A DNA stretch of 63,884 nt, counting the filler, from Neolecta irregularis DAH-3 (taxonomy: Eukaryota), in the NCBI GenBank assembly GCA_001929475.1. It is 7 parts of 7 records of this genome, joined end to end, with 100 filler letters (N's around TTAATTAATTAA, not from the genome) between each part and the next. Parts side by side here need not be neighbours in the genome. Positions count along the whole stretch, not along the records: positions 1 to 18,265 come from LXFE01000344.1; positions 18,366 to 19,839 come from LXFE01003252.1; positions 19,940 to 28,538 come from LXFE01000345.1; positions 28,639 to 30,439 come from LXFE01003258.1; positions 30,540 to 61,172 come from LXFE01000346.1; 2 more parts are not named here. One strand, given 5' to 3'. The notes below the pieces were generated by a model. The model saw only the letters and a list, made by a program, of their open reading frames with translations. It was not told the origin of the DNA and did no database searches. Positions 1-59,012 of this stretch are shown piece by piece (within the stretch, counting starts at the first letter, position 1; every line of letters starts with the position of its first letter). Position numbers and translations under genes: made by a program.

Positions 1-2142
1 CCCCGCCGACGCCCAGCCGGCCCGCGCGGCAGCCCTCGCGCGGGCGCACTGCCTCGCGGTCGCGGTGCCCGAGTCGGCGCGCGTCGGGCACTATGCGCAC
101 TTTTGCAAGCAGATCCTGTGGCCGTTCTTCCACTACCAGATCCCAGACAACCCGCGCTCCAAGGTCTACGAGGACCACTCGTGGCACCACTACCTGCGCG
201 TCAACCACGCCTTCGCCGCCGCCCTCGTGCGCGCCTACTCCCCCGGCGACCGCCTCTGGATCCACGACTACCACCTGCTCCTCGTCCCCGCCCTCGTCCG
301 CAAGGCCCTGCCCAACGCAAACATCGGCTTCTTCCTGCACGTCGCCTTCCCCTCCTCAGAGGTCTTCCGCTGCCTCGCCGTCAGAAAAGACCTGCTCGCG
401 GGCATGCTCGGCGCAAACCTCGTCGCCTTCCAGACCGCAGAGTACTCGCACCACTTTCTCCAGACCTGCTCCCGCGTCCTCGGCGTCGAGGCCACCGCCA
501 CCGGCGTCTACCTGCCAGACCGCTTCGTCCACGTCACAGACATCCCCATCGGCATCGACATCTGCGCCCTCCACCGCAAGCTGCGCGACCCCGCAGTCCT
601 GCACTGGATCGCTCTCCTCAAGCAGCGCTACGACGGGAAAAAGATCCTCGTCGGCAGGGACAAGCTCGACCATGTCAAAGGCGTCCGCCAGAAAATGCTC
701 GGCTTTGAGCGCTTCCTGCAGGACCATCCACACCTCGCCTCCGATGTCGTCTTCATCCAGGTCGCCCTGAGCACCACTGAACAGAACGAACTCTCCTCCC
801 AGGTAGTAGACACCATCTCCAGAATCAACTCCTCCCACGCAAACCTCGCGTACGACCCGGTCGTCTTTCTCCACCAGGACATCACCTACGAGCAGTACCT
901 CGCCCTGCTGACCGTCGCAGACGTTCTTGTCATCACCAGCCTGCGCGAAGGCATGAACTTGACCTGCCACGAATACGTCGTATGCCAAGAAACACGAAAG
1001 AAACCCCTCATTCTCTCTGAAGTATTCCCCCCTAATCTCCAACCCTGACTCTAGTTTACCGGAAGTTCAACAGTCTTCCAGGGCGCCATTCTCGTCAATC
1101 CATGGGACACAAAACGCGTCGCTTCATGTATCTACCAAGCCCTTCAAATGTCCCCCCAAGAATCCGCCTCTCGTTGGCAAAAAATGTGGGATTACATCAA
1201 TTCCCACACCGCGGAAAACTGGACAACCACCTTTCTTGACAAATTGGATTCAACCTACAACGATCAACAGCGCCACCAAGCTCAATTCATCAAACGCTTT
1301 ACCCCAGAAGAATTTCACGGCGAGTATAAAAATGCTCGTAATCGCTTGTTTTTACTAGACTACGAGGGCACGCTGGTTAGTTGGGGATCACCCGGTGACG
1401 TCATAATGACGTCTCCGCAACATACAATCGATTTGCTAAACGACCTTTTATCCGATCCTCGAAATTCAGTATGGATATTCAGCGATTCAACGAGTCAAGA
1501 TATCCAAAAACTCGCCAATCGGGTAAATAGATTGGGTCTAGTAGCTGAATATGGCTGTCTCTTGCGTCGTCCTAACTCAAACTTTTGGGAAATAATTTGC
1601 GATAACTCAGATTGGCGAAAGCCTGTTTTGGAAATATTAGAATATTACGCTGAACGAACTCCTGGTTCGAAAATAATCAAGGGACGAGTTGTTTTGAAAT
1701 TTCAATGGGATAAATGTGAAGAATTAGAATTTGCTGCGCGGTACGGATAACTCTTGCCAGGTTTTTAATTTCTAGACAAGCGAGTGAAATTGCAAATCAT
1801 ATAAATGATGCTTGTACAGATAAACAAGTCCATGCGATACCAACAGAAGGAACAGTCCTCGTTCTCCCAACAACAATAACAAAAACAAGCACTGCTCAAA
1901 AAATCTTGAAAGAGCAATCTACCGAGGTTGATGTGGATTTCGTGGTAGTAGCCGGTGACGATCGTGGTGATGAACCTGTTTTCGAATGGGCGGCTCGTCT
2001 TGAAGAGGAACATGAGGTGAAGAGTGTGGTTACTATTAGCGTTGGAGCCAAACAAACTGCCGCGAAGCGATGGGTTGCCGCTGTTAATGGATTGGTTGCT
2101 GGATTGAATGGATTATGTGTTGGACATCAACCTGGTGACTAA
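1..2142 (+). CDS. TPS3: Trehalose-6-phosphate synthase/phosphatase complex regulatory subunit (GT20 + HAD domain, Tps3/Tsl1 type); 5' end outside window
   Basis: GT20 motifs WIHDYHLLLVP, IGFFLHVAFPSSEVFRCL, GRDKLDHVKG and SLREGMNL. Phosphatase motif reads LDYEGTL rather than catalytic DYDGTL. Introns 1022-1054 and 1741-1775 join the ORFs in frame; stop TAA at 2140-2142. Confidence 0.88.
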
Positions 2143-2230
2143 CGAGGTTTGAAACTTGAGCTTGCCTCGTATTACAATACGCAGTACAATATATCCAATC
2201 TTACTCCAGTCCTTGGAGCTAGATTTCGTA

Positions 2231-57400: not shown

Positions 57401-59012
57401 CCGCCAAATTGTATAAAACGCGGTCGGAAGATTACTTTGGAAAGCTCGAAGTCGCGGAGATTGCTGTGCGAAAGGCGACTCGAGCTGAATCGTATATGCA
57501 GAGCCAATTGGAGGAGACCGAGCGAGAACTAGTGGAAGTTAAAGAAGCCCATAAAGCGAATGAACTTGAAATCCAACGACTTGTTCAAAAGATTCAGATT
57601 TTGGAGGCAAAACTTGAGGATGGAAGCGCTGATTCGACAATGTCGCATCTTGCTCATCAGCGACTTCAAAATGAACTTGAAGAATTGCGAGTGAGACATG
57701 AACGTGATCTCGAGGAGCGTGACAGTTACATTGACCAGACTCGAAGCAAGTATCAAAAGGAGTTGACATCACTTCATGGAGAACTCGAGAGTGAGCGACA
57801 CAACGTGATGGACCTACGGACCGAGAATAAGTACTTTATGGTCCTAGATATTGAAGCTAAATGATAGGAAACTTCGAGCATCTTCAGATTCATTGCAAGT
57901 CAAGCTTGACGAGTCGCTGTTGATCTCAACTTCCTGGAGTAAAGAGAAAGCCCGTTATGAGACCAAAGTCAAGGAAATAAGTCTTGCTCTGGAGGAAGCG
58001 TTGTCAGCACGTCGAGAGTCACAAAGTGAAGTAGTCGCCAATCTGTCAGAGATGCGAAAGCTTCGTGCACACATTGATGAACTTGAAGCTGAGCGTGAGC
58101 AACTCTCCAAAGACAAGAGACAACTTGAACACCGATTGGAGCAAACCTGTCAGAGTATCGAGAACATGTCTCGAGAAAAGGGCTCGGCGAGTTCTGCGAA
58201 ATTGGAGAAGGAGATACTGGCTTTACGAACACTATTAGATGAGAAGGAAGATGTTGCGGTTTCCGCCATTGAACAACTCAGACGCGCTGATGCTGTTACT
58301 TTGGAAACTCAAAAGGACATCAACGCGGAACGGGAGCTTAATGCGCAGTTACATCGTGACAAAGTAAGATTTTCCGATACAACCAGCCGCTTATTTATTT
58401 TAGGCTCAGTTGGAGAAGACGAATAATGAATTACATCTCCGTCTTGTTGATCTCGAAACTAGTACTTATTCCAACAAGTCGGGCGTCGGTAATCAACGAC
58501 TTCAATCACAAGTAAAAGAGGTAGAACGTCCCACATATTTCTTGAACTAATTTGAAAGCTGGAGAAACAGTTGGCCGAACAAATTCGAGCGCGAAATGAA
58601 ATTGAACGATCGATACGGAATAACGATCGCAGTGTCCGTGAATTACAAGATCAATTAAATCATCGGGAGAAAGTTACCAGTCGTCTTGAAGACGAAATCA
58701 ACAAGAAAGAAGAACGATTAATCCAACTTCGTAAAATGGTTCAAGAATTGGTAAATCTATTTATTTGCCGAATATCTAATATAACCAGCAAACTTCTGAG
58801 ATGAATCATGAAGTCGCTCTTCAGAAATCTGAAAGAGTCGCAAAGGCAGAGAAAGAGCGAGCGTTGGGGTATTCATCCCGCTTTACAACTTTCTTATAAA
58901 TAGACTTGAACGGGACCTCGAGAAATTAAAAACGAGGTTTGAGAGTTCTGATCTTATGGAACGGTTGAATACGCTACGAAGATCTCGCGGGACTGATAAT
59001 TCTTTCATATAG
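51483..59012 (+). CDS. myo2: Myosin II heavy chain
   Basis: [16 protein letters not shown]-loop [47 protein letters not shown], long coiled-coil tail. Many 33-42 nt introns, including GC-AG at 52698-52732 and 56243-56277. Confidence 0.95.

Follow-up and report, generated by a model that had tools for sequence, protein, structure and literature searches.

The introns described here lie in one window of the Neolecta irregularis DAH-3 genome, the window being the whole stretch of 63,884 bases that was analysed (528 of them N). It is gene-dense eukaryotic nuclear DNA with a GC content of 40-49% in 4-kb windows. Stop-to-stop open reading frames (ORFs) combined with Pfam matches revealed genes for a trehalose-phosphate synthase/phosphatase, a WD40 protein, an Atg3/10-like protein, CYP51, ornithine aminotransferase (OAT), RAD16/rhp16, rhp7, a ubiquitin hydrolase, a YVC1-like channel, eIF2-alpha, Yip1, a BRO1 protein, a BEACH protein, a subtilase, an acyl-CoA thioesterase, SPT8 and a class II myosin. 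Rfam at gathering thresholds returned 0 matches in the window, and ARAGORN 0 tRNAs. The final set comprises 60 introns in 14 genes, which proved to be very short, weakly specified at the 5' splice site and tightly organised around the branch site. The finding is genuine and, in quantitative terms, unusual for a fungus, yet what it shows is the ordinary spliceosomal intron in an extreme form and not a new kind of element. The CYP51/OAT region is GC-richer than the remainder of the window. Runs of N stand at about 60450-61220 and 62090-62750, in GC-rich sequence near the window 3' end, and because of them the gene content there is unreadable.

The introns were located without any splice motif beyond GT/GC..AG. 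A spliced protein-to-DNA aligner was used, which allowed introns of 20-400 nt at a flat penalty with a GT or GC start and an AG end; for the genes without fetched homologues the Pfam profile coordinates or the PDB residue numbers of the flanking ORFs served as anchors, and every frame-compatible GT/GC..AG pair between them was enumerated. Tier A contains the 53 introns established by distant homologues or by Pfam/PDB coordinate continuity, and tier B the 7 with weaker evidence, mainly a public model or an ORF junction. The introns interrupt coding frames and the spliced ORFs are colinear with homologues and PDB chains; furthermore, removal of 48 introns left exactly one stop-free frame in each of the eight best-studied genes (8/8). 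At 4 of the 13 ORF junctions tried there was no GT/GC..AG solution compatible with the anchors, and some of these four probably hold small exons. Pfam anchors were unusable for 9 of 20 short ORF pieces, 8 without a match and 1 with unrelated weak matches only. Left out of the set as uncertain were the RAD16 upstream candidates 14443-14478, 14292-14329 and 14247-14285, BEACH 38166-38201, the first CYP51 intron (8588-8624, or variants of 31, 28 or 52 nt), the UCH junction with its 6 candidates, and a junction at 5298-5337 or 5300-5333. A gene parse by codon usage alone was dropped, since the long introns it proposed (107-275 nt) were false and skipped small exons. A second, motif-guided parse served only to pick ORF pieces for Pfam and was kept out of the statistics.

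Each intron is cited below with its length, donor hexamer, branch motif and last three bases. On the plus strand, the trehalose-phosphate synthase/phosphatase gene is interrupted at 1022-1054 (33 nt, GTATTC..CTGAC..TAG), which is the sole GT/GC..AG solution joining Pfam Glyco_transf_20 positions 406|407, and at 1741-1775 (35 nt, GTACGG..TTAAT..TAG; Pfam Trehalose_PPase 124/130), one of 4 candidates, the others being two of 20-23 nt and a 38-nt variant with a GC donor. Within this gene (window 1-1800) the GC content declines smoothly from 71% at the window edge to 37-40% about 1.6 kb inward. The WD40-repeat gene (Pfam WD40) has a tier-B intron on the minus strand at 2970-3008 (39 nt, GTTTCG..TTGAC..TAG), taken from an ORF junction as the only GT candidate of 3. 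The Autophagy_act_C (Atg3/10-like) gene has one on the plus strand at 4068-4100 (33 nt, GTATCA..CTAAT..TAG), the only candidate at Pfam 129/138. In CYP51 the plus-strand intron 9485-9521 (37 nt, GTAAAT..CTGAC..CAG), 1 of 3 candidates, makes PDB chain numbering continuous at 318|319.

Four introns were placed in OAT on the plus strand. The first, 10327-10358 (32 nt, GTACAT..CTAAT..CAG), belongs to tier B, being read from the sequence, and leaves the frame open after splicing; the second, 10637-10674 (38 nt, GTCCCG..CTGAC..CAG), is set by PDB OAT numbering 109|110 and Pfam 96|96; the last, 11270-11316 (47 nt, GTATAT..CTTAT..TAG), is the only candidate at Pfam Aminotran_3 288/285. Between these stands 10983-11024 (42 nt, GTATGT..CTGAC..TAG), an exact 14-residue insertion relative to the PDB OATs, which had been the top 'decoy' of the motif model described below. 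Because it is in frame and stop-free, this intron is invisible to ORF logic; its retention would lengthen the protein by 14 residues directly behind the conserved GEAG motif. Together with the CYP51 intron and with 23388-23424 of eIF2-alpha, the OAT introns 10637-10674 and 10983-11024 are the four fixed to the residue by PDB numbering.

In RAD16/rhp16, on the minus strand, four distant proteins agreed on all eight introns (4/4 each): 12390-12427 (38 nt, GTATGT..CTTAC..TAG), 12982-13019 (38 nt, GTATTC..CCAAC..CAG), 13216-13254 (39 nt, GTATGT..TTAAA..CAG), 13350-13386 (37 nt, GTAAAG..CTAAC..AAG), 13435-13471 (37 nt, GTATCT..CTGAC..CAG), 13693-13734 (42 nt, GTATGT..CTTAC..TAG), 13926-13975 (GTAACT..TTAAT..TAG), at 50 nt the longest of the set, and 14008-14048 (41 nt, GTACGA..CTGAT..TAG). 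In the weakly conserved 5' part of the same gene (14247-14329, minus strand), one homologue alignment gave introns of 39 and 38 nt around a 6-nt exon, and the other alignments gave one intron of 60-83 nt.

The YVC1-like channel gene, also on the minus strand, yielded nine introns from five proteins. All five support 20841-20873 (33 nt, GTAAAA..TTGAT..AAG), 20945-20982 (38 nt, GTACTA..CTTAT..CAG), 21045-21079 (35 nt, GTTCCC..CTAAC..TAG), 21611-21649 (39 nt, GTATTT..CTAAG..TAG), 21739-21773 (35 nt, GTATCT..CTAAT..AAG), 21966-22004 (39 nt, GTAAAG..TTTAT..CAG) and 22361-22396 (36 nt, GTGCAT..CTGAA..CAG); 22240-22279 (40 nt, GTGATT..TTGAC..TAG) is given by 3 of 5, the other two taking a GC donor 3 nt upstream, and the GC-AG intron 21264-21300 (37 nt, GCGATT..CTAAA..CAG) by 4/4 distant homologues. 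The neighbouring eIF2-alpha gene has two minus-strand introns: 22783-22821 (39 nt, GTATGG..CTAAG..TAG), of tier B, comes from public model P0271, PDB homology stopping at 22822, and the GC-AG intron 23388-23424 (37 nt, GCAAAA..CTGAT..CAG) is the one with which alone PDB eIF2-alpha numbering is continuous at 81|82. A minus-strand intron of the BRO1-domain gene, 26179-26216 (38 nt, GTATTT..CTGAT..AAG), is the only candidate at Pfam BRO1 177/179.

The BEACH (Beige) gene on the minus strand contains an ORF of 813 residues with 99% identity to the 2559-aa protein P0121, Beige 1 [Neolecta irregularis DAH-3], which aligns to the window over residues 1-2559 with 10 introns. Four proteins gave these ten introns, seven by 4/4: 34981-35019 (39 nt, GTACTT..CTTAC..CAG), 35536-35572 (37 nt, GTAATT..CTGAT..GAG), 37973-38015 (43 nt, GTAGGT..TTAAC..CAG), 38549-38584 (36 nt, GTAATA..TTAAT..AAG), 38757-38796 (40 nt, GTAAGA..CTGAT..AAG), 40454-40488 (35 nt, GTATGT..TTGAA..CAG) and 40686-40726 (41 nt, GTTTAT..CTTAT..TAG). 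Two have 3/4, namely 39357-39391 (35 nt, GTATGT..TTAAT..TAG), where one protein takes an acceptor 15 nt downstream, and 40088-40127 (40 nt, GTTCGA..CTAAC..AAG), where one takes a GC donor 6 nt inside; the tenth, 34677-34715 (39 nt, GTATCT..CTAAA..CAG; tier B), comes from the Neolecta protein alone. A 36-nt in-frame, stop-free stretch of this gene, 38166-38201 (minus strand, GTAGGC..CTAAT..GAG), has an intron-like score; two of three distant homologues skip it, and the 99% identical public protein has it as coding sequence.

The remaining introns are all on the plus strand. In the subtilase gene, Pfam Peptidase_S8 coordinates placed 43828-43862 (35 nt, GTGCAT..TCAAC..CAG; 95/100, 1 of 2 candidates) and 44202-44238 (37 nt, GTATTC..CTGAC..TAG; 211/231, 1 of 2, the other being 25 nt with a GC donor). 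In SPT8, Pfam Beta-prop_SPT8 gave 50011-50042 (32 nt, GTATTT..CTTAG..TAG; 78/91, tier B, the donor fixed and the acceptor 1 of 5), 50150-50182 (33 nt, GTAATT..CTGAA..TAG; 117/119, only candidate), 50738-50774 (37 nt, GTATCT..CTTAC..CAG; 303/304, 1 of 3, the others 22-28 nt), 50830-50872 (43 nt, GTATGT..CTTAC..CAG; 321/322, only candidate) and 51095-51135 (41 nt, GTGAGT..CTTAT..TAG; 393/393, 1 of 2, the other 23 nt). For the myosin II heavy chain gene the same first ten introns were obtained from 3/3 Pezizomycotina myosins: 51720-51760 (41 nt, GTACGT..CTCAC..TAG), 51905-51945 (41 nt, GTATGG..CTTAC..TAG), 52131-52170 (40 nt, GTATAA..CTAAC..TAG), 52358-52394 (37 nt, GTATGA..TCAAT..TAG), 52558-52593 (36 nt, GTTCAT..ATAAC..TAG), the GC-AG intron 52698-52732 (35 nt, GCAAGG..TTGAC..CAG), GT being absent nearby, 53141-53181 (41 nt, GTGAGC..CTGAA..CAG), 53359-53392 (34 nt, GTATAA..CTAAT..TAG), 54095-54135 (41 nt, GTATGT..TTAAC..CAG) and 54427-54466 (40 nt, GTAGAA..TTGAC..TAG). 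Two more, 54865-54905 (41 nt, GTATAA..TTGAT..TAG) and 55150-55183 (34 nt, GTTCAA..TTAAC..CAG), came from 2/3 homologues, the third alignment stopping before the latter. In the myosin tail two tier-B introns lie at junctions of two long ORFs: 56243-56277 (35 nt, GCAGGA..CTGAT..TAG), a GC-AG intron whose GC is the only possible donor, and 57831-57867 (37 nt, GTACTT..CTAAA..TAG), the only candidate.

Two further named Neolecta proteins match window genes besides Beige 1, and the comparison with our introns indicates that public Neolecta gene models at the window loci are wrong in ways fitting the odd splice signals. The public eIF2 subunit alpha (P0271, 941 aa; window 20379-23656, minus strand) is fused to its YVC1-like neighbour via a doubtful intron, 22629-22666. 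Its eIF2-alpha intron 23366-23408 (GTGGAC..AAG) was ruled out by PDB alignment, and its YVC1 intron 21284-21323 was set aside for 21264-21300. The public rhp16 (P0319, 487 aa; window 12320-14001, minus strand) aligns only with a 380-nt 'intron', 13216-13595, which skips exons found in the four distant RAD16 homologues, and this model is also without the N-terminal part.

Concerning intron size, the first-pass annotation had proposed a range of about 32-50 nt, and this was confirmed: all 60 introns fall within it though the aligner allowed 20-400 nt. The median is 38 nt with a standard deviation (sd) of 3.4, and 56/60 lie within 33-43 nt; the density is 2.4 introns per kb of coding sequence in 8 genes. 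Lengths divisible by three number 16/60, not clearly below one third in this small sample. The three introns that the annotation had delimited in the trehalose-phosphate synthase and OAT genes (1022-1054, 1741-1775 and 10327-10358) also hold, the evidence for each being that given above.

The donor dinucleotide is GT in 56 and GC in 4 of the 60 introns, and the 3' end is AG throughout (60/60). Position +3 is A in 47/60 (78%), +4 is T in 28/60, +5 is G in 21/60 (35%, 95% confidence interval 24-48%) and +6 is T in 32/60 (53%); on the exon side, -2 is A and -1 is G in 31/60 each (52%). The small-sample-corrected information at +3 to +6 is 0.93, 0.24, 0.02 and 0.29 bit, altogether 1.49 bits, of which +4 to +6 contribute about 0.55 bit. 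The commonest donor hexamer is GTATGT (8/60), and the typical ascomycete consensus GTRNGT fits only 11/60. When -1 and +5 are considered together, 20/60 donors have G at neither position, 19 at -1 only, 12 at both and 9 at +5 only. GC-AG introns (about 7%; donors GCAAGG, GCAGGA, GCGATT and GCAAAA) are more frequent than the roughly 1% of most eukaryotes, and their remaining donor positions are not especially strong. U12-type introns are defined by an (A/G)TATCCTT donor together with a TCCTTRAY branch near the 3' end; 0/60 introns here start with (A/G)TATCC. The acceptors are TAG (30), CAG (22), AAG (7) and GAG (1), so that the unusual AAG and GAG ends noticed earlier are present. The earlier statement that donors are nearly random beyond GT is fair for +4 to +6 and goes too far at +3, where A prevails, and also in view of GTATGT being the commonest hexamer; from its seven example donors (two of them GTA), GTATTC, GTCCCG, GTTTCG, GTGCAT and GTAGAA recur in the set, and GTTCCT and GTGACT do not.

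It could be argued that such a weak donor consensus is an artefact of misplaced boundaries or of a few odd genes. The boundaries are indeed based on protein similarity, 7/60 are of tier B, one public-model intron proved wrong and was replaced, and several frame-compatible candidates exist at some junctions. However, the 53 tier-A introns alone give the same picture (+5G in 19/53, +3A in 41/53, 1.48 bits at +3 to +6), the most extreme donor, GTCCCG, is the one fixed to the residue by PDB numbering 109|110, and the weak-donor pattern is present in all 8 multi-intron genes; we regard an artefact as very improbable.

The 3' part of the introns is organised more strictly. A motif search in the intron interiors returned (T/G)(G/T)(C/T)T(A/G/T)A(C/T) with a log-likelihood of 167.7, versus 140.5 +/- 4.4 for shuffled interiors. 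Run without a positional prior, this search put 12 of 46 sites at least 16 nt from the 3' end, and it was replaced by a windowed count of YTNAY. Of the first 46 introns, 36 had a YTNAY whose A fell at -14 to -6, versus 10.3 +/- 2.7 in interior shuffles (maximum 19 in 1000) and 8 in a window of equal size near the 5' end. In the final set it is found in 45/60, with 36 of these at -10 to -8, and the branch A chosen by best motif is at -8, -9 or -10 in 48/60. The distance from branch A to 3' end has an sd of 1.36 nt, versus 2.77 nt for the distance from 5' site to branch (25-39 nt, median 30). In 45/45 introns with this motif the AG used is the earliest that lies 5 nt or more beyond the branch A; in 39/45 it is also the very first AG beyond it, and in the other 6 the skipped AG stands 2-4 nt after the A. 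With only 5-7 nt between branch A and AG, there is no room there for a pyrimidine tract; upstream of the branch, T and C are mildly enriched in the spacer (59% versus 49% in exons). A loose branch motif shortly before the AG with no polypyrimidine tract, as had been described at first sight, is therefore borne out.

These signals invite the explanation, already put forward in the first-pass annotation, that the spliceosome itself has changed in Neolecta, whether in the 5' end of U1, in the ACAGAGA box of U6 or in U1C, Luc7, Prp8 or the U6 m6A methylase, so that pairing at +4 to +6 is dispensable and a branch-based protein or RNA ruler sets the 5' cut. G at +5 in just 21/60 donors, its absence from both -1 and +5 in 20/60 and the four GC donors speak for it. 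All fungi analysed in a 2025 paper are reported to have strongly biased intron-side 5' sites, and in two intron-rich fungi donors with G at +5 and not at -1 are stated to be 4-15 times commoner than the converse (PMC11842720); as far as that account goes, the balance in Neolecta (9 against 19) is the opposite. For human introns a productive donor-to-branch span is stated to require at least 46 nt (PMC11291888), far more than the 25-39 nt measured here. A precedent is reported from Entamoeba and Mastigamoeba, where a new strict donor consensus is matched by a compensating change of U1 (10.1101/2022.06.08.495308). Like these, Neolecta deviates from GUAAGU at the donor; unlike them, it loses the consensus and gains no new one, and the same source describes several lineages with atypical donors that keep a standard U1. 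The residual biases (+3A, +6T, -2A, -1G and GTATGT) are moreover those that standard U1 and U6 favour. The standard U1 5' end is ACUUACCU and the standard U6 box ACAGAGA; standard U1 would be expected to pair with GTA in combination with the -2A/-1G bias. Short introns are also handled with standard machinery in S. pombe, at a reported median of 56 nt (PMC4889648). A change of the spliceosome is not required by the data, and we consider it unlikely. The corresponding proposal, that the Neolecta 5' site needs little beyond GU(A) at a set branch distance, with a changed snRNA or 5'-site protein acting as a ruler of about 30 nt, is likewise doubtful and put forward only tentatively.

The distribution of information was quantified by leave-one-out scoring, in which 48 introns were set against 12,971 decoys over 21.7 kb of sense pre-mRNA. 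The donor (-3 to +8) contributed 5.08 bits (GT 4.06), the acceptor 4.40 (AG 3.99), branch motif with position 5.57 and length 2.74, in total 17.8 bits. Branch motif and length together account for about 8.3 bits of this total; GT and AG apart, the donor supplies about 1.0 bit and the acceptor about 0.4, and intron-interior base composition adds about 0.5 bit. At the score retaining 36/48 real introns 13 decoys pass, 2 of them purely exonic, and in the first model run the 'decoys' ranked first and third were real introns, confirmed afterwards by PDB alignments. Given the acceptor, no other GT lies in the 28-50 nt window for 32/60 introns, and no competing GTA for 53/60.

On the basis of these sequence features we favour, with moderate confidence, the interpretation that the introns are ordinary nuclear U2-type introns (GT-AG, sometimes GC-AG) near the smallest workable size, read by intron definition. 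Each intron would be recognised as a single unit, anchored by the branch site and the nearby AG as a tightly spaced 3' module, and the 5' site would be the GT(A) situated some 25-39 nt before the branch A. The local scarcity of rival GTs in this narrow span of about 30 nt may stand in for most of the information that +4 to +6 pairing provides in other fungi. The weakest introns would probably need extra help, for which depletion of look-alikes in exons (weakly seen), kinetic order and decay of mis-spliced mRNA are candidates. Pseudo-introns matching the bare rule given below are rarer in real exons than in triplet-shuffled ones (66 versus 89.4 +/- 10.2; 0.5% of 200 shuffles had 66 or fewer).

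Several points weigh against this interpretation. When the score is set so as to retain 43/48 real introns, 58 decoys pass as well, and 27 of these are purely exonic. A bare rule (a YTNAY followed at 5-12 nt by the first AG and preceded at 24-39 nt by GT, preferably GTA) found 36/48 introns, missed 12/48 and made 66 purely exonic false calls. The motif-guided gene parse recovered 45/47 training introns and over-called inside continuous ORFs: 6 extra introns in BEACH without support from the 99% identical protein, 3 inside the CYP51 ORF and 1 inside the SPT8 ORF, both with a continuous Pfam match. Motifs plus spacing are insufficient, the weakest quarter of real introns being not separable from decoys. 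The earlier idea of a branch plus a length ruler is upheld in so far as the information is mainly at branch and spacing, with an AG distance rule that holds in 45/45 cases, and falls short because these do not suffice. Donor and branch strength show no compensation (rho -0.09, p 0.50), which a pure shared-information model might predict. Furthermore, the data come from 60 introns of a single 64-kb window with boundaries from protein conservation, and GT/GC..AG was imposed by aligner and enumerations, so that other terminal dinucleotides are invisible. The later replaced eIF2-alpha intron 23366-23408 entered the motif search, the shuffles, the first decoy run, the GT-competition and first-AG counts, the bare-rule test, the interior composition, the branch-distance figures and the donor-branch correlation.

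Because the scores fall short for the weakest introns, some further contribution must be assumed, and it might be supposed that the machinery is standard and the missing information mostly outside the intron, in enhancer-like exonic or intronic signals, in co-transcriptional order or in errors cleaned by nonsense-mediated decay, all of which would then count for more than a length ruler. The 27 exonic decoys, which score like the weakest 10% of real introns, and the 66 exonic calls of the rule would fit. Among 42 introns with a clear frame, retention would bring an internal stop in 29 and a frameshift onto a stop in 9, so that most errors (38/42) would be visible to decay. On the other hand, 4/42 would be silent if retained, as would the 42-nt OAT intron, the interior composition amounts only to the half bit mentioned, and length and branch position are tighter than such a mechanism needs (sd 3.4 and 1.4 nt). 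We therefore judge it quite unlikely that the missing information lies mostly outside the intron.

Among studied systems the nearest is S. pombe, which, like Neolecta, belongs to the Taphrinomycotina. It is described with a canonical 5' site GUAAGU (PMC4889648) and a branch motif YURAY whose median distance from the 3' end is 12 bases (PMC4079972). Like it, Neolecta has short introns with a YURAY-type branch near the 3' end (here with the A at -8 to -10) and little or no pyrimidine tract; unlike the published S. pombe introns (median 56 nt, GUAAGU), those of Neolecta have a median of 38 nt with the narrow spread, the few GTRNGT donors (11/60) and the 35% +5G given above. The intron richness of N. 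irregularis is already known: in 1211 shared genes 4202 introns are reported, against 4842-5289 in Pneumocystis and 862 in S. pombe (PMC7940399). Neolecta shares with Pneumocystis the subphylum, the intron richness and short introns. A degenerate donor was reportedly described in older Pneumocystis work. Like Neolecta, ciliates such as Paramecium have introns of a very narrow length class, about 25 nt in their case, with a donor that is essentially GTA; they are reported to avoid stop-free lengths divisible by three. Neolecta introns are longer, with 16/60 lengths divisible by three, not clearly below one third in a small sample, and the lineages are unrelated. Among the papers listed for Neolecta together with introns or splicing, no description of its splice signals was found, and supplements may hold figures. 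The words intron, splice and exon do not occur in the main text of the genome paper, its supplementary methods possibly holding intron statistics; according to that paper, fruiting-body RNA was sequenced (PMC5309816).

What makes these introns unusual is the combination of three features: a third of the donors without G at either -1 or +5, about 7% GC-AG, and a donor-to-branch span of about 30 nt. As the public models are wrong at the loci studied here, gene counts and comparative conclusions derived from the public Neolecta annotation may need re-examination. How a spliceosome finds the 5' site with so little sequence would be directly testable in this fungus, a relative of fission yeast for which a public genome exists and RNA data have been reported. 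If a 5' site of GU(A) plus a ruler were to prove true, Neolecta would represent a natural minimal-signal splicing system, convergent with that of ciliates.

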